A DNA stretch of 64,000 nucleotides from an uncultured archaeon (GCA_963782915.1 CAWALK010000022.1:256001-320000), one strand, 5' to 3'. Shown: positions 1,193-40,648, counted from the first letter of the stretch. The notes: generated from the sequence alone by a model not told the origin. Made by a program: numbers and translations.

Positions 1193-3224
1193 TTAAGTCT
1201 TCTTTAAGCAACCTTCCCGCGGCTCATAAACCGTTCCTTCACGCAGCAGTTGGCTAATCATGCGTTCGATTTCGCCTTTAGGAATCTTATGCTTAGTCTC
1301 CAATTCGTTGACTAATGCGTCGCGTTCTACGATGCCCGTTACTTTCTCCATATCCATGATGGTTGAGATAACGATTCCTAATCTGTCGCGGATGCTCTTG
1401 GGGCGGCCAGTCATGATTAAGTCAATGTCAACTTTGTAGTTGGATAAGTCGATGCCGACTTCTTCAAGCGACCGCTTCATGATGATAATGGCTGCTTCCG
1501 CATCTTCAGCAGTAACAGTGCTACGCAACGCAACACGTGCCCTGGCTTCCGCGATTCGGACAAGCGATTCAAGCTGACGCGCAGTAATAGCAACAGGTGA
1601 ACCTTCGGTTTCGCTGGCTGAACGCATCGCCAAATAGAAATCACTAAGCTTTTTCATTGCATCTTCGCTGAGTTCAGGCTTAACAGTTTTAGCAAAACTA
1701 ACATATTTCCGCAACAACTCCGCATCAACACTAGCTTCGACTGGGCTTCTGCCACGTCGGTGAATTTCCAGAATGTGCCGCGTCATTTTAGCGTCGGAAT
1801 CTTTGCTGGGAACATCTCGAAGCACGAAAATTAAGTCAAAACGTGAAAGGATAGTGACTGGTAACGAAATGTTTTCTGCCACAGTTCGGTTGGGTTCATA
1901 TCTGCCCAAAGAGGGGTTGGCTGCTGCTAACACTGCGGTTCGGGCGTTTAGGGTGGCGACGATGCCTCCTTTAGCGACGGAAACGGTGTGTTGTTCCATG
2001 GCTTCGTGGATGGCAACTCGGTCTTCAGGGCGCATTTTGTCCATTTCGTCGATGCAGGCAATGCCTTTGTCGGCTAAGACGAGTGCTCCTGCTTCGAGAC
2101 TCATGCTGCCGCCTTTCTCGCGGACGACGGCGGCGGTTAAACCTGCAGCGGTGGTTCCTCTGCCCGAAGTATAGAGGCCTCTTGGCGCAATTTTTGAAAC
2201 ATACTGGAGTAACTGTGATTTGGCTGTACCTGGGTCACCGATGATGAGTGCGTTCATTTCGCCCCTCACAGTCATGTCTGGGAGAGCTTCTGGATACTCC
2301 TCCAAAGAGTAGGTACATTACTGCTTCTTTGAGGTGCTCGTTTCCAAAGATGGAGGGTGCAATGGAAGTCATGATTTTTTTGTGCACTAAGGGATCTCTG
2401 GATAATTCGAGGATTTTTGCTTCCTCTTCTGGAGTGGGCGGTGAAGTTTCAGGTTCTTTACCCAATACTTCTATGGAGTTAGCGTCTAATTGGAGGATGA
2501 ATGTGCGTAGTTTACCCATTCCCTGCAGGGAAGGCGCGAAGGCGCGTACGATGCCAACTATGGAAACGTGGTCTCCTGGGCGTGCGACGTCAACTATTTC
2601 GTCGCCGATCAACTTGACCGCTAACATTCGTGGAAGCTGTCCTGGCGGGAGGTCTTCGGGTTTTTCTTGCAATCGAAGGTCTTGTGAGTCGATGAATGAT
2701 GATTCTTCTTGTGAGAATTCGAATGGGCCGTCTCTGCCGCAGTCTGGTGCCATGCAGATTGAGGGTGCTTTGAGGAATTGGCCGTTTTGGTCAACTTGGT
2801 TCATGGTGCCACAGCGTTTGCATTTGAACGCGGCGATTTGAACCATAGGCCGGACAGGTGTAGCTCGGACAACGATGCCTTCGACCATGACAAGTTTAGT
2901 CATGTTTCTGGAGCCGAGTTTACGCAACTGCTCTTTGCCCAGAAGCTTTACGATTCGAACGATGATTTTCTCGATTTTCTCTGCATATTCAGAATCTTCA
3001 ATGCGTAACTGTTCATAGGCGCCTTTAGCTGCATGCAACAGAAACTCTTCAGGCTTAGCCAAAAGCCTCTCTGAAAGTGCCAAGTCAAATCCGTAGAGTT
3101 CCTCAAAATCGATAGTTAACGAGTTTCTGCCGCTAATCGCTAGTTGCGCTATGCGTTGACGATACTTTTCTTTCTTGAAGAATTCTTGAAAACGCTGAGT
3201 TGGCTCTACAGCTTCGAGACTCAT
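1193..3224 (-). CDS. mcm: MCM replicative helicase (frameshift near 2270-2300)
   Basis: N-terminal Zn finger CKRC/CMAPDC; GDPGTAKSQ Walker A, IDEMDKM Walker B, SRFD arginine finger. Confidence 0.96.
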
Positions 3225-3783
3225 TGTTTGTCAACTCCGTTTTCCAAGATTTTAGCTTTCCATTCAGAGATTATTTTTACAAGTTGGTCATAAACGATTT
3301 TTTCTTCGGTGGTTAATTTTTTGAGGACCTGTTCACCCTGGGACGGTGCAGCAGAGAGGGCGACGATTTTTTTTAGGCGGGAATTCACTATGTCGCGTGC
3401 TAACTGTTTTGTGCGGTCATATTCCTGGAATTTCTCGGATTCCTGGGTTTGGGTTGCTTGGTCTTTTAGGTCTAATAGGAATCTGCGTAGTTTAGGGTAG
3501 AAATCGCCCTGTAACTCGCTGATTTGCCCGGAATCTGCACGCCTTCCTTCCATTGTGCTTTGAATAGTCTGGTGGCGTCCAAGACGTCGTCTTCACGGAA
3601 ATGCACCATAGCGGCGGAGGCGAGTTCTTTTGCTACCCAAAAATAAATTTCGTATTCGTTACCTTCGTCGAAGGGGCCAACGGTTAATCCTGCCAATTTG
3701 ATTTCTGGGCAGTTGCGGTTTGCAACAATTTTTACCATAGAATTCTCGAAACAAAAGTCTAAGGTATGTATTTTTGCCGCCAA
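3221..3783 (-). CDS. GINS23-like subunit (frameshift near 3540)
   Basis: Overlaps mcm start; B-domain-like GPFDEGNEYEIYFWVAKEL, then helical SRLKKIVALS and LTTEEKIVY. Confidence 0.8.
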
Positions 3784-8585: not shown

Positions 8586-8901
8586 AAAGTCAACATATCA
8601 CGTGCCTATTGTTTTAGCGTTGACCCCATATCCATATCGAAGGGTCTTTGTGCTAGTAGTAGTATAGTCTTCATAAAGACAAATTGCGGTGATCTAGCGC
8701 TCCATTTTTGGCAAACCTTAAAAGACCACAGCTAATTACCGATTACTTAGATAGAAGTGTTCAAAATGAAACACCCGTTTTTTTAATTCAATCCTAACAG
8801 CTCTACCAACTTCTCGCAACGACCAACCCCTAACCCTGAAGCTCACATCTCATATGGGCAACCGAAGAAAAATCTGATAACAACCGCTTTTTTCTAAAAC
8901 C

Positions 8902-8932
8902 ATAAATACTTGTAAACATAAAGTTGTTTACA
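8902..8932 (+). promoter_or_regulatory. TATA box (ATAAATA) plus perfect palindromic operator TGTAAACA-N6-TGTTTACA
   Basis: TATA-like 8902-8908; inverted repeat 8911-8918/8925-8932; ATG at 8942. Confidence 0.75.
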
Positions 8933-8941
8933 GGTGTTGTC

Positions 8942-9425
8942 ATGAGCCTAAACTGCATCGCCTCGCCCCTAAGCCAAAGCCAAAAAACCATCTGGGCACT
9001 CCTCAGGCACAGGCCACACAGTAGCCAACATAGCAGAAAAACTAAAAACCACACGCCAATACGTCAACCAAACCCGCCTCACCACCCAAACCAAACTAGC
9101 CACCACACTACTCGAAGTCGCAGCCGTCAACGAACTCCAAGTCACCAAACTCAACCCCCAACAAGCCATCCTACTCGGCTACCACCCCGGGCTCCAAAAG
9201 AAAGCTATCATCACCTACACCACCAGCCACGGCCTAAAAGTCTGGTACTGGCACGACAACCCAGAAGAAATCACCGACACAGCATTCCTGAACCAAACAA
9301 GGCAATACCTGATTGACATCGCCAAAGAAAGAGGAATAGAAATCGAAGGCTGGGAAAAAATCCATCCAGCAAAACTGGCGCATATGGTTTTTAGCAAGTT
9401 AATCCCGGAGTTAACCAACCAATGA
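8942..9425 (+). CDS. HTH DNA-binding regulator (sigma70-r4/LuxR-like N-terminal HTH, about 160 aa), one extra base near 9007
   Basis: Reconstructed MSLNCIASPLSQSQKTIWALL.TGHTVANIAEKLKTTRQYVNQT...HGLKVWYWHD...HPAKLAHMVFSKLIPELTNQ*; TGA overlaps next ATG (ATGA 9422-9425). Confidence 0.8.
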
Positions 9426-10149
9426 ACACCAAAAGAAGTCTACAGAATCGAATCAGAGGATGGTATCCGCAAGAACCCGCATTAAGCATTATAAAAAACG
9501 CCAGTTCAAAGATGAAAAGAAGAATGACAACTGGGCCCTATGCCCATACTTGGTACCGGGAGCTTTAATGATTTTTGCAGCCCTATTATCAGCAAACTTT
9601 GGACTAACCCTTGTATCCGTGTATGTACAAGGATTTCCTGCAGGAGACACCGTTTTTTACTCAGGTCTCTACATTGGAATCTTGAGCGTAAGCGGGTTTA
9701 TTTTAGGATTAATCTGCGGAGGTCTCCTGTTAGCGGGAAAGCGCATACACATAGCGGTAACAGGCATAGCTATAATATTCTGTTTTGGGCTTGCGACGAT
9801 CATTTTACCAACATTGGAGGGCTTAGGATGGACGAGCGGTTTAATTGTGGCTTCGCCAATGATTGCCTTTCCTGTTATATCGTTAATCCAAGTAGGATTA
9901 AATTCTAAGAAGCTCAAAGCATATAACGCCATTCAGGAACCTAAGCTAACAATCGAAGTGGAATCGCCAATCAATCGAAGACCGGTGGCCGCTGGATTAG
10001 GCGCTGCTGGTTGCGGATTCATCTTAGTAGGATTACTAGTATATTTTATGGCACCCATATTCCCCGGAATGATAAATTCAATTCTGATTGTCACAGGGGT
10101 TTGCTTACTTGTGGTAGCGTACCTCGAAAAGAGAACATACAAACACTGA
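9422..10149 (+). CDS. Array membrane protein 1 (about 6 TM), RGWYPQEP motif; frameshift near 9480-9550
   Basis: ATG 9422 reads MNTKRSLQNRIRGWYPQEP; hydrophobic body in ORF 9460-10149. Confidence 0.75.
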
Positions 10150-10161
10150 GGCATATAACCG

Positions 10162-10425
10162 ATGAGAAGAACAGAGCCACCGTGTATAGAGACAAAAGCT
10201 AAATTGGACAAGAAAATGCGCAAAGCAGGCATGGCTGCGAATTCAGTGTTATACTTGGGGTTTGGGGGCGTCTACTTTTTGGTAGCTCAACCTGCCTATC
10301 ACTATGACGTGAGCTTGGAAGTGACTACTTTGACTTTAACCAGCTTTGTGGTAACGTTAGCTGCCGTTAATTTTGCGATTTATAGACACTACAAACAGCG
10401 AATACTGACTAAAGGGAGGATTTAG
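10162..10425 (+). CDS. Array membrane protein 2 (2 TM), lacks the RGW motif; likely paralog of 12049-12414
   Basis: Two hydrophobic segments; C-terminal VNFAIYRHYK resembles VNFLLYMNYK. Confidence 0.65.
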   Translation: MRRTEPPCIETKAKLDKKMRKAGMAANSVLYLGFGGVYFLVAQPAYHYDVSLEVTTLTLTSFVVTLAAVNFAIYRHYKQRILTKGRI

Positions 10426-10427
10426 AG

Positions 10428-10976
10428 ATGGGGTTAAAGCAGCGTTCAAAAGAATTCTTCAGGGGCTGGTTTCCACAAGAACCGATGTTACCAAGAGGCT
10501 TCACTTCAAACTCATCAAACCTTGAGGGCAATACTCTGCCCACCGAAAAAGAGTTCATGTCTCTTCGATTGCAACACAAAAAAATCTACATTCCCGTTGC
10601 CGCCTTCTTCCTGTCAAGCATGATGCTTTGTCTTTATTTGCTGATTAACCGATTAATCGACGAAGAATTAGCATTCGCAGGTCTGATGACAATTCTAATT
10701 GGGCTGCTTTACAATGGCCTTGCATTGGACGTTTACATAAAGAGAAAAACGGCTCTGCGCGCTACGATTGACAAGATGGTCTTGCCCGTCATCACCAGCG
10801 CAACTCTAGCTATCGCCGGTCTTTGGATTTTAGCCAGTGCAAATCTAGTAAGCTTCAAGGATCTTGCTTTCCCGATTTTAATCATTGGTTTTTCAGTTTA
10901 CGCATATCATTTTATCGTTGATTCTTCGGCTAAATCGAAGATACGTCAGCAAAAGCGAGCGGAGTTACGATTATGA
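10428..10976 (+). CDS. Array membrane protein 3 (4 TM), RGWFPQEP motif
   Basis: MGLKQRSKEFFRGWFPQEP; GGAGG upstream; ATGA overlap with next gene. Confidence 0.8.
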   Translation: MGLKQRSKEFFRGWFPQEPMLPRGFTSNSSNLEGNTLPTEKEFMSLRLQHKKIYIPVAAFFLSSMMLCLYLLINRLIDEELAFAGLMTILIGLLYNGLALDVYIKRKTALRATIDKMVLPVITSATLAIAGLWILASANLVSFKDLAFPILIIGFSVYAYHFIVDSSAKSKIRQQKRAELRL

Positions 10977-12070
10977 ATGAAAAGAAAAACCTGTGGTCGC
11001 ACCTCAGAGGCTGGTTCCCTCAAGAACCAGTTCTAAAAGTTCCTCAGATTCATTTCCTCATAAAACAGTCCAGTAAACCGTGGAATCTGAGCAAAAACAT
11101 CAGTAGTTTCTTTTATGGACAATTATTGCTTGGTTCATTCATCATAAACTTGTTCATGGTTAGTTCAACAAACGAATTTCTTGCCCTTATCTTGTCCTGC
11201 TTCATAGTTGCATTCATTGGGATAACTGTTTACAATTTACGAAAATACCACGGATTACAAGATTTACTCAGCGGCGGTTTGTTTGCAGCGTCTATTGGAG
11301 TAGTAATTGTCAGTGCCTTCCTTTTTTCGCTTAAGACCTTAAGCGCAACGAACAGTATAATATTAGTAATTTTCAGTATGGCTGTTTTTACAATATTATA
11401 TGCTCTGGTACAAAGTGCTGGGAAGATAGGAATACGCCTTCCCCATAAGGCAATGGTTTTTTCTCTTGCTTTAATCGGCATTATCGCTCTCGTGCCATCA
11501 TTATCTGTAGCTTATCATGACGAAGACAAAACCGAAGTAACCCATCAACAAAATATTTTCAGCGAATATTTCAATCTAAGTAGACAACTTCCCGATGAAG
11601 TCGTCAACATCAACTTGACCACCGCTGACAAAATTGAGATTGACATGACCAAACAGCATGGCGCAAACGTAGACTCTTATGCCAGCATTGTTTTTACGGT
11701 TAGTGACCGGAATCTAAGTTCCAGCGCAAAAATCTATTTTTCTTCAAACACCATCGACAGCTGGTTTACTCAAACTTGGACTCCACCCCAAAACGGAACT
11801 TACGTGTTCACCCTTCATTTTAATCATATAGCCTCAAATTACGTTTGGGTAGGTGTAACTAGGGTTTGGTCAACGATTGAAATGAGACCATCGGTGGTTG
11901 CAAGGCCTCTGCTTGCCCAGTTCATGGCACCCACATTGATTCTTGCAGCTGCTTTACTCGCCGCTAGTGTCGCAATTCCAATCCGAAGCCTCAAAGGACC
12001 AAACTTCAGAGGGGCAATTAAGCAGAAATGGAAGGAGACATGGTTGCAATGGAAAAAAAGCTATTTCTAA
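10973..12070 (+). CDS. Array membrane protein 4 (multi-TM plus extracellular beta-rich domain), RGWFPQEP motif
   Basis: MNEKKNLWSHLRGWFPQEP; about 5 TM, then a domain with several NxS/T sequons (WTPPQNGTYVFTLHF), then a final TM. Confidence 0.8.
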   Translation: MNEKKNLWSHLRGWFPQEPVLKVPQIHFLIKQSSKPWNLSKNISSFFYGQLLLGSFIINLFMVSSTNEFLALILSCFIVAFIGITVYNLRKYHGLQDLLSGGLFAASIGVVIVSAFLFSLKTLSATNSIILVIFSMAVFTILYALVQSAGKIGIRLPHKAMVFSLALIGIIALVPSLSVAYHDEDKTEVTHQQNIFSEYFNLSRQLPDEVVNINLTTADKIEIDMTKQHGANVDSYASIVFTVSDRNLSSSAKIYFSSNTIDSWFTQTWTPPQNGTYVFTLHFNHIASNYVWVGVTRVWSTIEMRPSVVARPLLAQFMAPTLILAAALLAASVAIPIRSLKGPNFRGAIKQKWKETWLQWKKSYF

Positions 12071-12414
12071 GGGCCATCATTAGAGGTTGGCTTCCAAAGG
12101 ATCAATCTTTCCAAAACATAGCCTGTGAAACCAAGAAGCCAACAAAGATTAACCAAAGCCCAAAAAATAACGAAAACGAAGACAGACCCATGACGAAGGG
12201 ACAGATAAGAGCATTAACAGTACTGGGCATAGCGAACATAATTATGCTTATCAGTTACTCAAGCTATCTTGTCATCTACCTGATTACGCCCAGCCTTTGG
12301 AGCTCTACGCTCGGTTTCAGCTTGTGGGTTTTTATTGTGTTCTCACTGCTTTTCGTTAACTTTTTGCTGTACATGAACTACAAGAGGCAGACAAGAATGG
12401 CGGAGGGTGTGTAA
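12049..12414 (+). CDS. Array membrane protein 5 (2 TM), RGWLPKDQ motif
   Basis: MEKKLFLRAIIRGWLPKDQ; AAGGAG upstream. Confidence 0.78.
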   Translation: MEKKLFLRAIIRGWLPKDQSFQNIACETKKPTKINQSPKNNENEDRPMTKGQIRALTVLGIANIIMLISYSSYLVIYLITPSLWSSTLGFSLWVFIVFSLLFVNFLLYMNYKRQTRMAEGV

Positions 12415-12416
12415 GA

Positions 12417-12719
12417 TTGGATTTGGATCGCTTGCAGAATCGTCTCAGAGGCTGGCTTCCCAAAGAGCCAACGCTCCAAGTCCATCAAACACGGATAGAC
12501 CAAGAGAATTCGCTTATGGTTCGATGGATGGCAAGAGCCATTGTTGTGGGGGCCGTTGCAAGCGGATTGCTGGGAGTTTTCGGGGCAGAGGCAGGTTTAG
12601 ACCGCGGAGTCGGCGGATATGCTTGGTCCACGTTAGTGATAGTAATTGCTCCAGTTGCAGTGGCGGTTGCCGCTGTTTTTGGCAAACGAAAAATGAAGCA
12701 GCAAAAGCGGACTTGGTAA
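12417..12719 (+). CDS. Array membrane protein 6 (2 TM), RGWLPKEP motif
   Basis: MDLDRLQNRLRGWLPKEP with TTG start, GGAGGG upstream, basic C-terminal tail. Confidence 0.8.
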   Translation: MDLDRLQNRLRGWLPKEPTLQVHQTRIDQENSLMVRWMARAIVVGAVASGLLGVFGAEAGLDRGVGGYAWSTLVIVIAPVAVAVAAVFGKRKMKQQKRTW

Positions 12720-12728
12720 TGTCTGAAG

Positions 12729-14942
12729 TTATTGCTTAATTGTTATTTCGAATTTTGCGCCCTTATTGGGTAAGCCGTTTTCTTGTATTGACCAACCGTA
12801 AACTTCAACCATTTTTTTGATAAGACGCAAACCTAAACCTGAACCGTTGCCTGTAGTGAAGCCTTCTGTGAAAAGCTTCGGCTTATTAACCTCCGATATG
12901 CCAACGCCGTTGTCCTCATAGAACAGTTTTACGCCGCCGTCTTCAAGTTTGGCGAAATGCACTTTTATCTGGGTTACTTTTACGCCATGCTTCAACGAAT
13001 TATCTAAGAGGTTATAGAAGAGTTGTCTTAGCAGCGAATCAGCCATCACCGATAAGCCCCCGAATTCATTAACGATTTCTACTCCAACCAGATTTGGCAT
13101 CAGAGAAACTGCCTCGTTGAAGCATTCCTCAACATTAACTTGCGTTAACTGTTCAGCACCGATTTTCTCGTATAATCGGCTAAATTCAAGCAGCTTATCC
13201 GATGAATTAACGGCTGCGTTGATTGAATCAAGATACTTCGCCAATTCGGAGTCGTTGGCAACGCGTTTTTTTAGCAAGTAAACATTAGCGCTTATGATTG
13301 AGAGCTTATTTTTTACGTCATGGCGGGTTAAGCCACCGACGACGCGGAGTTTTTCATTCATTGTTCGTATTTTTCGGCTGCTTTCTTTGAGTTCCTCTTG
13401 AGCTCTCTTGTGTTGGCTTGTATCGCGTATTATCATGCTTACACTTGAGTTACCGTTGGGTTCCGTGAAGCGGGTGGATGTTAGGTCTCCTTCGAATTCG
13501 GATCCGTCTTTGCGCCTAAAGGTTAACTCGGCTTTGGCTTGACCTGTTGTCTCACGTTCCCTAATAGCAGATTTGGCTCGGTCGTCAAGAACCATTATGC
13601 CATCGCGGCCAACTTGGGTAAGTTCTTGTTCATTCCAGCCGAACATGCGACAAGCCGTGGGGTTAGCAGAAACAATTTGGCCAGATGGCTTCATGAGCAC
13701 AACAGCGTCGTAGCTGTTGTCGTAGAGGGCTCGGAAATGCTCTTCACTGCGCCTAAGTGCTTCTTCAGCCCTCTTACGCTTCGTTATGTCACGTTCCATA
13801 GAGAGGAACCAAATGTCCGAGCCAATCTTCACAGCCTTTACAGAAGCCTCAACATCAATGGTTGAACCGTCTTTTCGCCGTTGTGTTGTTTCAAAGGAAT
13901 ACTTGTTTTTTAGTTTAAGATTTTGAACTAGGCGTTCAGTTTTTGGCATGTCTGCTGAATCATCGATAAAAGAGATTGGTTTACCGATTAACTCATCTTT
14001 TGTGTAACCGAGAGCACGGAGGGCTGCAGAGTTGGCGTCGTGAATGATTGGAAGCTTACCGAAGGGAATCTCCATCAGCAGTATGTAGTCGGCGGCTTGC
14101 TCAAACAGTGCCCGGTATCGTTCTTCGCTAATCCGCAAAGCTTCCTGAATGAGTTTACGCTCGCTTATGTCTCGTTCAATAGCAATTGCCCAGATTTCCG
14201 ACCCAAAATTTATGGCTTTAATGTGCACTTCAACGTTAAACAATGAGCCATCCTTTCGTTTATGAAAGGTTTCGAAGTGGACTGATTTGCCCTGTTTAAC
14301 GTCACAAGCGATTTGGTTTATTTTTTGCTCATCAAAATAGCCGTCGACATATGTTATTGGTTTCCCGAATAGTTCATCCATTGAGTAGCCATGAACATTC
14401 AAGGCTGCTGTGTTTGCATCCCGTATTATAGGCGGACCATCAGTGGGATACTCTAACACTAAAATATAATCTGCAGCCTGATCCATCAACGCCCGATAAT
14501 GCTTCTCACGCTCTTCTAAGGCATGTTTGGTTCTACGTTCATCTGTAACCATTTTTATGCCATGAACAAGTTCGCCGAAAACAGTTTCGGTCGAGCCATG
14601 CTTGTTATAGTATCCGTCGGCTCCTAGATTTAGAGCGGTTATCGCGACCTCTTCTCGGCCCTTGCCAGTGAATAACATAAAGGCAACATCGTTTTTTTGG
14701 CTACGCAACTCTTTGAGAAATTGCAAGCCATCCTTCTGGGGCAATTCGTAATCACATACGATTACATCGTAGGGTTTTGTTTTGATTTTCTCTGAGGCTT
14801 CTTCGGCGTTCAATGCGCAATCGACTTCAAAGTCGCCGCTGATTTTTATTATCTGTTTTGAGATCAGCAAAAAGTCAGAGTCATCGTCAACAAACAAAAT
14901 ACGAATCGGGGTTGGCGAAGAAAAGGTCTTGGTATTATTCAT
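12729..14942 (-). CDS. Hybrid sensor histidine kinase REC-(PAS)x3-HisKA-HATPase
   Basis: ILFVDDD/CDYELP/FTGKG receiver; three RKDGS PAS/PAC repeats; TRHDVKNKL H-box; NLLDNSLKHG, EDNGVG, GSGLGL. Confidence 0.93.
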   Translation of the reverse strand: MNNTKTFSSPTPIRILFVDDDSDFLLISKQIIKISGDFEVDCALNAEEASEKIKTKPYDVIVCDYELPQKDGLQFLKELRSQKNDVAFMLFTGKGREEVAITALNLGADGYYNKHGSTETVFGELVHGIKMVTDERRTKHALEEREKHYRALMDQAADYILVLEYPTDGPPIIRDANTAALNVHGYSMDELFGKPITYVDGYFDEQKINQIACDVKQGKSVHFETFHKRKDGSLFNVEVHIKAINFGSEIWAIAIERDISERKLIQEALRISEERYRALFEQAADYILLMEIPFGKLPIIHDANSAALRALGYTKDELIGKPISFIDDSADMPKTERLVQNLKLKNKYSFETTQRRKDGSTIDVEASVKAVKIGSDIWFLSMERDITKRKRAEEALRRSEEHFRALYDNSYDAVVLMKPSGQIVSANPTACRMFGWNEQELTQVGRDGIMVLDDRAKSAIRERETTGQAKAELTFRRKDGSEFEGDLTSTRFTEPNGNSSVSMIIRDTSQHKRAQEELKESSRKIRTMNEKLRVVGGLTRHDVKNKLSIISANVYLLKKRVANDSELAKYLDSINAAVNSSDKLLEFSRLYEKIGAEQLTQVNVEECFNEAVSLMPNLVGVEIVNEFGGLSVMADSLLRQLFYNLLDNSLKHGVKVTQIKVHFAKLEDGGVKLFYEDNGVGISEVNKPKLFTEGFTTGNGSGLGLRLIKKMVEVYGWSIQENGLPNKGAKFEITIKQ

Positions 14943-19789: not shown

Positions 19790-20890
19790 TTATGTGCTTC
19801 CGTTGCTGTTGTTGACGCCTTTGAGAAAGCTGCTGATGAGCCGCCCCTCCTGTTCTGTTTCCACTAGGAAAGAGTCATGTCCATAGGTGGCATTGATTTC
19901 GCAGTAGCTTGCATCGACGCCCTGAGAGTTTGCAGGCTTTTACGATTTCCTGGGATTGGTAGGTGGGGTAGAGCCAATCTGACTTGAAGGCGATGACTAG
20001 CACTTTTGCGTGTAAGCCCCTGAAGATGTCTGCCGAGGCTGTGCCCGTTTAAGATGTTGAAGTAGTCTATGGCTTTGGTTATGTAGAGGTAGCTGTTTGC
20101 GTCAAATCGTCTGACAAAGCTGTCGCCTCTATTGTGGAGGTATCCTTCGACTTCGAAGTCAGCGCCAAACTTGAATGGTGCCTTGTCAGAGCGGAATTTT
20201 CGCCCGAACTTTTCAGCCATCGAAGCGTCACTCATGTATGTTATGTGTCCTATCATCCGTGCTATGGCTAAGCCTTTGGCGGGGATGCTTTTGCCATAGT
20301 AGTTGCCGCCCTGCCAGTCGGTGTCTGCCATGATTGCTTGGCGTGCCGACTTCGTTGAAAGCGATTTGCTGTGGATTATGCTGCAGAGCGGTAGCGATGG
20401 GAACTGCTGAGCGGATTCGTTTTGGATATTGAGTCATCCATTGCAGAACTTGCATGCCGCCCATGGAGCCGCCGATGACGGATAGAAGCTGCTGGATGCC
20501 TAAGTGGTCGATTAGGTGGCGTTGGGCTTTGACCATGTCGCCGATTGTGATTAAGGGGAAATCGGTTCCGTATGGTTTGCCCGTTTTTGGGTTGGTTGAT
20601 GATGGTCCTGTGGAGCCGCGGCAGCCGCCGACGACGTTGCTGCATATGACGTAGTACTTGTCGGTGTCGATGCCTTTGCCGCTGCCGATTAGGTTGCTCC
20701 ACCAGCCGCCTTCGCCAGCGACATGTGCGTCGCCGCTAAATGCGTGCAGAATTAGGATTGCGTTGGATTTGTCGCTGTTTAGTTTGCCGTAGGTTTCATA
20801 GGCAAGCGTAACTGGGCCGAGTTTTTCGCCTGACTCGAGCGTTAACTCGTCGAAGGTGAACTGTTGGGTTTGTTGGGTTGTTATTAGCGT
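19790..20890 (-). CDS. metX: Homoserine O-acetyltransferase (several frameshifts; start codon not resolved)
   Basis: [39 protein letters not shown]. Confidence 0.9.
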
Positions 20891-32182: not shown

Positions 32183-33511
32183 TTGCCCCCAGTTTTACAC
32201 CTAACACCCATAGAGGTGGATACCGACGAGAAACGCTCAAAAATCAGCGTTGCCGTCGTCGGATGTGGGCACAAAGGAATCTTTTATGCCAACGCCTTTG
32301 CAGACGCAGGCTACAGAGTAATCTGCACGGATGCTGATGCTAGCGTTGTTAAGAAAATAGCAAAAGGGAAAACTGGGTTTGTAAACCCTGAAGCTGAAGC
32401 CAAACTAAAAAGCCACATAGCATCCGAAAAAATTGATGTTACAAGCGAACGCAAAAAAGCTGTTTCTCAAAGCGACATAATAGTCATAGCCATCACCGCC
32501 AAGGTGGATGAGCAGAAAAAGAACGATTACACAGGCGTAATCAGCACCAGTAAACAGGTTGGGGCAGCCATGCATCAAGGTACGCTTGTGATTTACGGTG
32601 GCATCGCAGGTTTAGGCTTCACTGAGGGAACAATGAAGGAGCTGCTGGAGAATACTTCTGGGTTTAAAGCTGGAATCGATTTCGGTTTAGCATACAGCCC
32701 CATCCTAAACGCCACTGTTTCGCTTGGGGATTTGGAGCTTAAGGTTGCAGCAACTGACCAAACCAGCCTCGAAGCCGCAGCCACCATCCTTAGAACCCTA
32801 ACAAGTAACGTACGGGAAGTCAGCGACCTAAAAACCGCAGAAACAGCCGCACTATTCACAGTTGCCAAACAGGACGCAGCAACCGCATTAACCAACGAAT
32901 TAGCAGTGTTCTGTGAAACAGCAAAAATCGACTACTTCAAAGTCCTCGACACCCTCAACCTAAACAACCCAAGTTTCCGCCCAACCATCGCCGAAGAAGA
33001 AAACAAAAATGAAGCCTACCTCCTACTCGAAGCAGCCGAAAACTTAAACGTTAAACTTAAAGTTGCAGCATTATCCAGACAAATCAACGAGGACATGGTT
33101 AAGCACGCTGTGAATTTGACGCAGGAAGGGCTGCGAAACTGTGGCAAAAGTTTGCGGCGGGTGAAAGTAGCTGTTTTAGGTCCAGTAACTCCAGCTTCAG
33201 ATGCGAGCGCTTTTGTAGCGTTGCTTGAGCAGAAAGGCGCCAAAGTAGCGCTCTATGATCCAACCTCAAAGAAGGAAACACTGGATTCAGATGCAGTTAG
33301 ATCAAATCTTAATGAGGCTGTGGAAGGCGCTGACTGCATCGTTGTGTTATCAACTAAGGAACAGTTTAATCATTTGAACTTAAAGAAGCTCAAAGCATTG
33401 ACAAAGAATCCTGCGGTTATTGTGGATTTAGTTGGCAAATTTGAGCCTGCGCAGGTGGAAACAGAAGGATTCATATATTCTGGATTGGGAAGAGGAACTG
33501 ACCAGAAATGA
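32183..33511 (+). CDS. UDP-sugar dehydrogenase-fold protein with degenerate active site
   Basis: VVGCGHKG Rossmann; SGFKAGIDFGLAYSP; YDP..EAVEGADC; GGxC catalytic motif absent. Confidence 0.8.
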   Translation: MPPVLHLTPIEVDTDEKRSKISVAVVGCGHKGIFYANAFADAGYRVICTDADASVVKKIAKGKTGFVNPEAEAKLKSHIASEKIDVTSERKKAVSQSDIIVIAITAKVDEQKKNDYTGVISTSKQVGAAMHQGTLVIYGGIAGLGFTEGTMKELLENTSGFKAGIDFGLAYSPILNATVSLGDLELKVAATDQTSLEAAATILRTLTSNVREVSDLKTAETAALFTVAKQDAATALTNELAVFCETAKIDYFKVLDTLNLNNPSFRPTIAEEENKNEAYLLLEAAENLNVKLKVAALSRQINEDMVKHAVNLTQEGLRNCGKSLRRVKVAVLGPVTPASDASAFVALLEQKGAKVALYDPTSKKETLDSDAVRSNLNEAVEGADCIVVLSTKEQFNHLNLKKLKALTKNPAVIVDLVGKFEPAQVETEGFIYSGLGRGTDQK

Positions 33512-34460
33512 CTAAACTTGGCGTTGCAGTTATCGGAACGGGGCAGTGGGGTAAAAACCACGCCAGAGTCTACAAAGAATTACCTTCGACTGAACTTGTG
33601 GCAGTATGTGACGTTAATGCTGAGCGAGCAAAAGCGATGGCACAGCAGTATGGTGTCAAAGCCTACTCAGACAGCACCGAGATGCTCAAAGACAAAGACA
33701 TCCAAGCCGTAAACGTCTGCACATGGTCCACGATTCTTAGCTCAGGAAGCTATGAAGGTACTAAACGCAGGCAAACATGTGCTTGTCGAGAAACCCATGG
33801 CAACCAACCCCGAACAGGCACGACAACTTGTTAAAACCGCCGAAGAAAACGGTCTTCACTTAACCGTTGGCTTCCTCATGCGTTTCATCCCCGGATTGCA
33901 ACATATCCGCCAATCAGTTGAGAACAAAAAAATCGGCGAACTCGTCTGCGTCACCGCAAAACGCGTCTCCCAATGGCCCGAACGCATAGGCGACGTCGGA
34001 GTCGTCAAAGACACCGCAATACACGACATAGACGTCATGCGCTATCATATCCAAACAAGACCCAGTCTCTGTCTACGCTAAAATGGGCAGCAAAAGAATA
34101 CAGAAATTCGAAGACTACGCCCACATAATGCTCACCTACGAAAACGGCGAATCCGCATTCATCGAAACCAACTGGCTAACACCCTACAAAACCCGCACAC
34201 TCATCGCCACAGGCACTGAAGCCATAATGCGCCTAGACTACAACACACAAGACTTCTGGATAGAAGAAAAAACCCAAAGCATCCAACCACGGCTGCCATT
34301 CCAAGAACCCCTAAAAGCCGAGCTTCAACACTTCGTCGACTGCATCGTAGAGAAAAAGAAGCCCATAGTAACAGGTGAAGACGGCGTCAAAGCCTTAGAA
34401 GTAGCCACTGCAGCAATGGAGTCCTCTGCCAAAAACACAGCGGTACAATTAAAAAGATAA
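33508..34460 (+). CDS. Gfo/Idh/MocA oxidoreductase (UDP-GlcNAc 3-dehydrogenase-like), 2 frameshifts
   Basis: IGTGQWGKNH, HVLVEKPM, GDVGVVKDTAIHDID, NWLTPYKTR. Confidence 0.9.
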
Positions 34461-39966: not shown

Positions 39967-40648
39967 TTGGTGCATTTCTTGTCATCCCTAGAAAATGTTA
40001 TTTCACAAATCAAAACCGACCTCATGGCTAACAACGAAGTCCGCGAGGAAACCCATGAGAGCATGCGTAAAGCCACAAGCCTCTCCAAACAAGCAATACT
40101 GCTAATCCACCAGAAGAGGCTCTCTGATGCTGAGCAGATGGTTGCGAATGCTAAAGAAATTATATCCAGTCTGCAAACAAAAGCGGAAGAGTGCCCCGCA
40201 ATCATTTATGGTGGCATGTTTAGCGCCGCTTTGCAAGAATACGCAGAAGCCAATATTCTCTTGATTTTGGTGAAGGAAAACAGGTTTCTTACACCCTGCC
40301 GAAATAAGCGTACCCCCAGTCGATTACGTCTTGGGTTTAGCGGATGTCATTGGCGAATACAGGCGGCTTGCTTTGGATAGCCTGCGGGATGGCGAAGTTG
40401 AAAGGGGCGTGCGGTGCCTTGAAATTATGGATCAAGTCTTCATCCAACTCTTAGCCCTCGACGAAGCTTACATGCTCGTGCCAGGGCTCCGACATAAATC
40501 TGACATTGCAAGACGCATAATCGAATCTACACGCGGCGACATCACATTGGAAGTTCGACGGAAATCGCTTGAGGATTACCTCAAAAAGTTCACGCCCCCA
40601 GAAGCCGAAGCTAAAGGCGGGCGTAAACGGGCGAAGGCTAAAGAATAG
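39967..40648 (+). CDS. Translin family protein (frameshift near 40295)
   Basis: ALQEYAEA; YVLGLADVIGEYRR; GLRHKSDIARRIIESTR. Confidence 0.88.

Follow-up and report, generated by a model that had tools for sequence, protein, structure and literature searches.

The window analysed here is a 64,000-nucleotide (nt) stretch of the genome of an uncultured Bathyarchaeia archaeon (CAWALK010000022.1; contig C22:256001-320000 of a 3.28-Mb, 25-contig genome), and positions 8902-12719, counted from its first letter, carry an operon comprising a palindromic operator, a gene for a small helix-turn-helix (HTH) regulator and six genes for membrane proteins; five of these proteins share a short N-terminal peptide, hereafter the tag. 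It is proposed, with moderate confidence, that this is an autoregulated operon in which the repressor docks via its C-terminal domain (C-domain) on the cytoplasmic tag common to varied membrane proteins, and that sequestration in this way would relieve repression. The gene order and the translational coupling of the regulator with the tagged genes are conserved among relatives, exact copies of the operator are confined to promoters of tagged genes in this genome and in five relatives, and structural models support a contact between the tag and the C-domain. The elements listed in the initial annotation of the window, namely the palindrome, the HTH gene split by an indel and the six co-oriented membrane-protein genes, five of them with the motif, are all present.

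Anatomy and conservation of the tagged operon

All genes of the operon lie on the plus strand. A TATA-like box (ATAAATA, 8902-8908) is situated 3 nt 5' of the operator, a perfect palindrome of the form GTAAACA-N6-TGTTTAC (8912-8931) that ends 10 nt ahead of the ATG of the regulator gene (8942-9425). This gene encodes a LuxR/sigma-region-4-type HTH followed by the C-domain, a beta-meander/helix domain with the sequence HGLKVWYWHD, and is frameshifted near 9005: the part from 8942 up to roughly 9004 lies in frame 1, and the remainder, which starts around 9006 and ends with the TGA (9423-9425), in frame 2. The break is attributed to one extra base near 9005, because intact 160-aa orthologues read straight through this position, and all 20 invariant residues of the regulator alignment (A1) are found across the two pieces. 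The initial annotation had recorded this 1-nt indel correctly; it did not mention a second frameshift, located between about 9503 and 9530 in the gene for the first tagged protein (9422-10149), which has six predicted transmembrane (TM) segments. The body of the latter protein is 44% identical to an intact tagged protein of the related locus L072 and 32% identical to one of L101.

The next gene (10162-10425) encodes an untagged 87-aa protein with two TM segments, which is considered an N-terminally shortened member of the array because it is homologous to tagged proteins of 104-110 aa at five related loci (L054, L072, L061, L065 and L074; blastp E 4e-12 to 5e-16). Tagged protein 2 (10428-10976; 182 aa, four predicted TM segments) has no relative among the 152 partner bodies compared and forms a singleton cluster, while tagged protein 3 (10973-12070; 365 aa, six predicted TM segments) includes about 140 extracytoplasmic residues that separate TM5 from TM6 and is 54% identical to a tagged protein of L055. 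Tagged protein 4 (12046-12414; 122 aa, two TM segments), for which the ATG that places Gly at residue 13 was taken as the start, another ATG being present upstream at 12028, is 59% identical to a tagged protein of L055, and tagged protein 5 (12417-12719; 100 aa, TTG start, two TM segments) is 74% identical to one of L110. Counted from the regulator onward, neighbouring genes overlap by 4 nt (ATGA) at the first junction, by 4 nt at the fourth and by 25 nt at the fifth, and are separated by 12 nt at the second and by 2 nt at the third and the sixth. Nothing in the window proteins exceeded the cut-offs of Pfam, NCBIfam or PADLOC.

The tags of the five proteins read RGWYPQEP, RGWFPQEP, RGWFPQEP, RGWLPKDQ and RGWLPKEP, so that five of the six downstream genes conform to the pattern M-x11-RGW[YFL]P[QK][ED][PQ], with Gly at residue 13 in four tags and at residue 12 in the fifth. 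A six-frame translation of the 3.28-Mb genome contains 21 matches to RGWxP, and the continuation [QK][ED][PQ] occurs only in the five described here; the shorter GWxP is found within the first 60 aa of 45 of 21312 open reading frames (ORFs) of at least 40 aa.

A search with the regulator fragment detected relatives in 32 of 61 genomes (this one counted), including 26 of the 36 within the genus; the orthologues are intact, about 160 aa long and 60-84% identical. A scan of one genome per species yielded 163 relatives, and the best 80 loci were examined. At 74 of these 80 loci at least one same-strand downstream ORF contains GWxP in its first 60 residues, giving 153 such ORFs in total. The number of tagged genes varies among relatives, as had been anticipated: none were found at six loci, one at 33, two at 22, three at seven, four at eight, five at two, and six and seven at one locus each, and one further 10-kb locus (L037) carries nine. 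The stop codon of the regulator overlaps the start of the first tagged gene as ATGA at 59 of the 74 loci, and consecutive tagged genes lie a median of 4 nt apart.

The consensus of the 153 tags is M-N-V-K-K-S-L-E-N-R-I-R-G-W-[LF]-P-[KQ]-E-P, in which the invariance of G, W and P was demanded by the search pattern itself; the Gly is residue 13 in 99 of the 153 tags. Synonymous codon differences exist among the five window tags, and across the 153 genes all four codons are used for the invariant Gly and for the invariant Pro in roughly genome-typical proportions. Selection therefore acts on the tag peptide, in agreement with what the window copies had suggested. A DNA repeat or recombination cassette behind the common 5' ends was ruled out by the same codon differences.

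The proteins that follow the tag are highly diverse. When the first 22 residues were removed and the remainders were clustered (blastp E <1e-4, coverage of at least half the length), 152 partner bodies fell into 38 clusters. Only three of 145 partners exceeded a Pfam cut-off, all with NosD/beta-helix ectodomains, the other 142 having no family above it. The initial annotation had described the partners as sensors, and no sensor domain was identified by Pfam among these 145. At least one TM segment was found by a hydropathy script in 150 of 157 partners, the seven without one being fragments of <50 aa, and the first TM segment starts at a median of residue 42. In 142 of the 150 proteins the 15-residue stretch that precedes TM1 contains more Lys and Arg than the one that follows it, and therefore the N-termini, and with them the tags, are predicted to be cytoplasmic, the topology that a docking peptide had been supposed to have.

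The operator is conserved as well. The sequence GTAAAYA-N6-TRTTTAC is present in 77 of 80 promoters (79 related loci and the window), of which 64 are perfect palindromes, 12 have one mismatch and one has two, the spacing always being 6; a TATA-like word stands just 5' of the palindrome in 75 of the 77, and the palindrome lies about 10 nt ahead of the start codon. In archaeal promoter geometry such a word represents a promoter element, as it may by analogy here, and a binding site placed 3' of the TATA box but 5' of the start codon implies that transcription is repressed; because the operator occupies this position, its occupancy would be expected to repress the operon. This genome contains one exact operator site, one site with one mismatch and 41 with two. 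Each of five relatives has one or two exact operators, while a reversed control pattern gave none; five of the six exact sites in these relatives are just upstream of the regulator gene, and the sixth, in genome G030, is about 33 nt upstream of a stand-alone tagged gene. The idea that several sensors feed one transcription factor found no output regulon, since exact operators stand only before tagged genes; a wider regulon is thus unsupported, and the tagged proteins look like regulated cargo.

The stand-alone tagged gene (L247, G030:C1:45500-52500, 2420-2923, minus strand) encodes 167 aa, has no adjoining regulator gene and possesses its own exact operator at 2956-2975; it lies just downstream of same-strand genes for an ATP-binding cassette (ABC) ATPase and a permease. 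A clade of related loci (L120, L121, L122, L129 and L130, also L050/L023) shows another arrangement, in which genes for an ABC-transporter ATPase, a 6-TM permease and a 173-222-aa protein come after the regulator gene and then, in last position, a single tagged gene with the variant tag T-[HQ]-G-W-L-P-Q-D-P. In two other relatives, genes encoding a winged-helix-like N-terminal domain fused to 3-4 TM segments (L033 4288-5028, minus strand; L047 3710-4414 and 4588-5535, both minus strand) sit from a few hundred bases to about 1 kb past the tagged arrays; these fusions would be covalent membrane-anchored regulators beside a non-covalent system. Two window-type regulator copies (E 1.3e-79 and 1.1e-74) occur in a genome titled 'Methanocella sp.' (G444, L080), a label that may not reflect the origin of the contig. 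A scan of viral contigs with alignment A1 found no relative among 100 pattern matches, and a mobile or viral origin was dropped from consideration.

The regulator and its predicted contact with the tag

An AlphaFold model of an intact orthologue (pLDDT, the predicted local distance difference test score, 88) comprises an HTH at about residues 13-63, four strands at 67-103 and helices at 114-159. The N-terminal HTH superimposes on EnfR (PDB 8hno) with a Z-score of 8.7 and a root-mean-square deviation (rmsd) of 0.7 A over 51 residues at 29% identity, followed by sigma-28 region 4 (Z 8.2), DosR (Z 8.1) and DesR (Z 7.9, rmsd 0.8, 53 residues). Dozens of sigma region 4 and LuxR domains match model residues 1-65 with Z 6.4-8, values that, Z <8 being common, indicate the fold class only. 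By superposition on solved members, the domain belongs to the compact LuxR/GerE / sigma-70 region 4 HTH fold. A profile search of the PDB returned RcsB (E 0.0027), NarL (E 0.0039), EnfR (E 0.0078) and Tfx (1nr3, E 0.19). In Pfam, GerE (PF00196) reached 13.5-20.1 bits in eight regulators, under its cut-off of 23.5 bits, TFX_C (PF14601) gave no match at E up to 10 in the same number, and weak matches to Sigma70_r4 or r4_2 (E 0.028-0.14) were seen in two paralogues. Sigma70_r2 did not match, the 160-aa protein consisting of one HTH and a beta/alpha domain.

The C-domain modelled alone had a pLDDT of 86. It matches no Pfam family, and its model matched no solved fold, the best results being a VIA-align Z of 3.7 over 48161 chains and a Foldseek E of 0.24; such a predicted domain may lack a match among solved structures without being a new fold. 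A profile search of 1.84 billion representatives found 460 proteins at E up to 0.001, whose named members come from metagenome-assembled genomes (MAGs) of Bathyarchaeia, 'Ranarchaeia' and 'Hodarchaeales'. The nearest protein-atlas clusters were unnamed Bathyarchaeota, then the Tfx family (score 0.87, to be taken as a lead only).

To model the contact between regulator and tag, residues 1-45 of the neighbouring protein were paired with an intact regulator; the two come from the related genome G014, not from the window, and alignments of 20 and 110 rows were used. The complex scored 0.63 (runs of 0.39, 0.63 and 0.68), and the best control 0.01; in calibration, 58 of 80 solved complexes attained the score mark, as did two of 110 mismatched pairs. 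At least 86% of the contacts are common to the runs, and the pLDDT of the partner is 47-50. Confident contacts are predicted between tag residues 11-19 and regulator residues 64, 90, 100-109, 111, 120, 123, 142-145, 147-148 and 151, an interface that includes W102, Y103, P143 and A147, all four conserved without exception in the two regulator types described below. The predicted site is on the C-domain, away from the HTH. The supposition that the motif is a docking peptide for the regulator gains support from this model as well as from the co-variation of tag and regulator.

This co-variation involves a paralogous regulator type with conserved cysteines. One such regulator is encoded in the same genome (C12:144518-145021; L002 1420-1926); it is 32% identical to the window regulator and contains C-x2-C-x5-C, and the next gene (L002 1895-2527) encodes a single-pass 210-aa membrane protein, the N-terminus of which ends in Y-C-P-Q-P and which has a weak, below-cut-off match to DUF4179 (E 0.052). 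Both regulator types are present in this genome, and each is paired with a tag of its own kind. The Cys triad is invariant in 26 of 26 diverse sequences of the paralogue type (alignment A4), and among 43 pattern-caught representative sequences it is the majority state, 29 having three Cys and seven none. Partners of Cys-type regulators carry [WYF]-C-P (or C-R) at nine of 11 genome loci, and a metagenome scan with a narrower alignment (A5) found the same Cys tag at 62 of 70 assessable loci, by a loose pattern with a background of 4.9%. In the window type, the regulator has no Cys and none of the 153 tags has a Cys at the matching position (L 54%, F 35%, I 5%, V 4%). The tag type thus co-varies with the regulator type, a Cys triad accompanying the W-C-P tag and a Cys-less regulator F, L or Y. 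In the complex model, tag residue 15 touches T120, which is aligned with the third Cys of the triad, and E109, aligned with the first, is also in the interface.

Because the triad is invariant, the tag has a Cys and the modelled positions are close, a shared centre may be proposed, as a possible but doubtful reading, in which three regulator Cys and one tag Cys would form an intermolecular four-Cys metal or Fe-S (iron-sulfur) tether, redox state or metal supply deciding whether the regulator is held at the membrane. The C-x2-C-x5-C spacing is that of FNR and WhiB-like [4Fe-4S] sensors. In the same reading, the Cys form may be ancestral as well as commoner, the window clade having swapped in a hydrophobic F/L contact and expanded to as many as nine tagged partners; freedom from a one-to-one metal site would have permitted that expansion. 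A divergent Cys-type subgroup, comprising locus L152 (G345:C17) and representative P0222, has an insertion before the triad (…DSYGGKLC…). For one Cys-type partner the protein atlas gave STT3/PglB-core-like clusters (score 0.95, with 157-169 features in common), to be taken only as a lead, and no DUF1673.

Proposed mechanism and alternative explanations

According to the proposed mechanism, a dimeric LuxR/sigma-region-4-type protein would bind the palindrome that separates the TATA box from the start codon of the regulator gene, and would most likely repress the operon, which encodes the regulator and a variable set of otherwise unrelated membrane proteins. Each partner would begin with a cytoplasmic tag of about 19 residues, a basic amphipathic stretch followed by RGW[FLY]P[QK]EP, which the putative four-stranded meander and helices of the C-domain would grip. 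Docking would hold the regulator at the membrane and thus probably off the operator, and the state or amount of the tagged proteins, together with any signal that they might sense, would be coupled to the transcription of their own genes by an anti-repressor logic.

Several observations weigh against this mechanism. If all tagged proteins bound constitutively, a repressor made in a ratio of 1:n with its binders would never repress, and the mechanism therefore needs conditional exposure of the tag. At six of the 80 window-type loci there is no tagged gene within 5 kb, although some of these are on short contigs and the tag of L086 is degenerate. The complex model was obtained with proteins of a relative and alignments that we built ourselves, with a partner pLDDT of <50 and one run at 0.39. 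The two regulator types may have diverged once, in which case the co-variation comes close to a single observation; moreover, the partner N-terminus at the Cys-type locus L152 has no Cys, and eight of the 70 assessable metagenome loci have no recognisable partner. In the window itself frameshifts interrupt both the regulator gene and that of tagged protein 1, and a third gene is tagless.

The same anatomy, complex model and co-variation would be expected if the tag-bound regulator were instead the DNA-binding or co-repressing form, docking activating the protein as in a split ToxR-like receptor or as part of a negative feedback, so that the operon gauges its own output of membrane proteins or is acted on from the membrane. 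The restriction of exact operators to promoters of tagged genes suits such a homeostatic loop, and the position of the predicted tag site away from the HTH would allow DNA and tag to be bound together. No computational feature separates this explanation from sequestration; yet tethering a chromosomal promoter to as many as nine different membrane proteins is mechanistically awkward, and the position of the operator between the TATA box and the start codon points, by archaeal promoter geometry, to plain repression. We regard it as unlikely. Another explanation holds that some other apparatus recognises the tag, for instance one that serves membrane insertion, quality control, proteolysis or the assembly of complexes, and that the regulator is a co-transcribed repressor that does not touch the tag. 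The fixed distance of the tag from Met1 (Gly 13 in 99 of 153), as in targeting signals, and the extreme diversity of the partners (38 clusters among 152) would agree with this; but it leaves unexplained why Cys or F/L in the tag tracks the Cys triad of the regulator and why the modelled tag is placed on invariant regulator residues with controls at 0.01, and the tag is found nowhere else in this genome. We regard this explanation as quite unlikely.

Two frameshifts and one truncated N-terminus within 1.3 kb raise the further question of whether the window copy of the operon is decaying and no longer functional. No conserved residue is missing from either broken gene, neither contains further stops, the operator is perfect, and frame breaks also divide at least four more genes of the 64-kb window. 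These are a gene for the replication factor GINS, with its PSF2_N and Sld5 halves in overlapping ORFs (3221-3783, minus strand), an alpha/beta hydrolase gene (20228-20702, minus strand), a GFO_IDH_MocA oxidoreductase gene in which one ORF covers profile positions 2-72 and the following ORF positions 80-120 (33508-34081, plus strand), and a gene that is probably translin-like (39967-40648, plus strand). They suggest that the assembly contains indel errors at roughly one per 10 kb, and because nearby genes, essential ones included, are also split, such errors are the likely origin of both frameshifts of the operon, decay being very unlikely. Contigs of four public sequencing runs over 8850-10250 leave 8991-9084 and 9461-9507 uncovered and are silent on both frameshifts; in the 11 runs with matches, the fraction of the sampled words that is present does not exceed 0.18, and none of these runs is recorded as RNA.

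Relation to known systems and an adjacent gene

The arrangement closely recalls the extracytoplasmic function (ECF) sigma factors and their membrane anti-sigma factors, including the zinc-binding ZAS proteins. In both cases a small regulator with a region 4/LuxR-type HTH shares its transcription unit with a membrane protein, and a Cys-containing variant exists; in the operon described here, the partner is predicted to bind the regulator through a short cytoplasmic segment at its N-terminus, and autoregulation is proposed. As to pairing of the ECF type, the genes are coupled by the ATGA overlap (59/74), while binding of the regulator is predicted by the complex model (0.63 vs 0.01) and supported by the co-variation. 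Unlike ECF sigma factors, the regulator has no sigma region 2, and the predicted contact is made by a separate C-domain rather than by the HTH. To our knowledge, archaea have no sigma factors, and the regulator must therefore act as an ordinary operator-binding factor. The partners also differ from anti-sigma factors in that neither the window proteins nor the 145 related ones have a Pfam anti-sigma domain, and in that one regulator faces up to nine unrelated partners, with exact operators only before tagged genes.

Among archaeal regulators, EnfR (TON_1525) of Thermococcus onnurineus, a dimeric repressor that binds a promoter pseudo-palindrome (PMC10570040), is the best structural match of the HTH. 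The likeness ends at about residue 58, residues 8-58 being aligned; compared with the whole regulator, EnfR gave a Foldseek E of 0.15 and a TM-score of 0.35-0.41, and the regulator does not share the 'eighth note' fold. EnfR was not among the listed matches of the C-domain model, and EnfR is not known to have tagged membrane partners. The Tfx family (PDB 1nr3), which combines a Sigma70_r4/GerE-type HTH with TFX_C, likewise consists of small archaeal proteins, of about 140-150 aa, with an N-terminal HTH of the same type and a second domain. Window-type regulators differ from it in giving no match to TFX_C, and 1nr3 matches HTH residues 22-54 only (E 0.19).

DUF1673 (arCOG06827) is an expanded membrane-protein family of Methanosarcina with an 'MGWCP motif', reported in a single table line (PMC4158269), and in this respect the motif named in the initial annotation is borne out in print. 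Cys-type partners resemble it by the W-C-P near the N-terminus, L135 even reading GWCP, whereas window tags have GW[YFL]P and none of the 153 window-type tags contains a Cys. The family profile (PF07895, cut-off 30.4 bits) gave no match at E up to 1 for eight window pieces and none at E up to 0.001 in 145 related partners; its best score in the whole genome was 12.3 bits (E 0.19) at another locus, and none of 81 genomes in a phylum search centred on G444 had a protein over the cut-off. In the literature on DUF1673/GWCP motifs and on archaeal membrane-tethered transcription or anti-sigma factors, no description of the system was found beyond the table line of PMC4158269, its supplementary tables aside.

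The proposed logic, in which a soluble factor is held by a cytoplasmic tail, is also that of other systems that have no sequence or fold relationship to the one described here. In Mlc-PtsG a repressor is held at the membrane by the cytoplasmic part of a membrane protein, and in the 'zinc clasp' of CD4/CD8-Lck a metal site is shared between chains, as may be the case in the Cys-type pairs. We know of no counterpart to a 3+1 stoichiometry of Cys ligands or to the multiplexed arrays.

Transmembrane signal transduction in archaea is poorly understood, and Bathyarchaeia are abundant uncultured archaea of sediments and soils. In this operon, compact and conserved as a module, the soluble operator-binding protein appears to recognise a tag of 19 residues common to dozens of unrelated membrane proteins, and the Cys-type sister system may use a metal or Fe-S site between regulator and membrane partner. 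The named records that carry the system are Bathyarchaeia and Asgard-labelled MAGs, and the reading with a shared four-Cys centre, if true, would establish a tag-reading regulatory principle among these. If confirmed, the module would correspond in function to sigma/anti-sigma signalling, though assembled in archaea from other components, and the tag a natural one-to-many docking element that provides a handle for finding the membrane proteins of one regulatory circuit.

Downstream of the array, the window contains a convergent gene (12729-14942, minus strand) encoding a 737-aa protein with a receiver-like start, PAS-like repeats and a histidine-kinase-like C-terminus, as judged by eye from the translation; this gene is not kept beside the arrays of the relatives.

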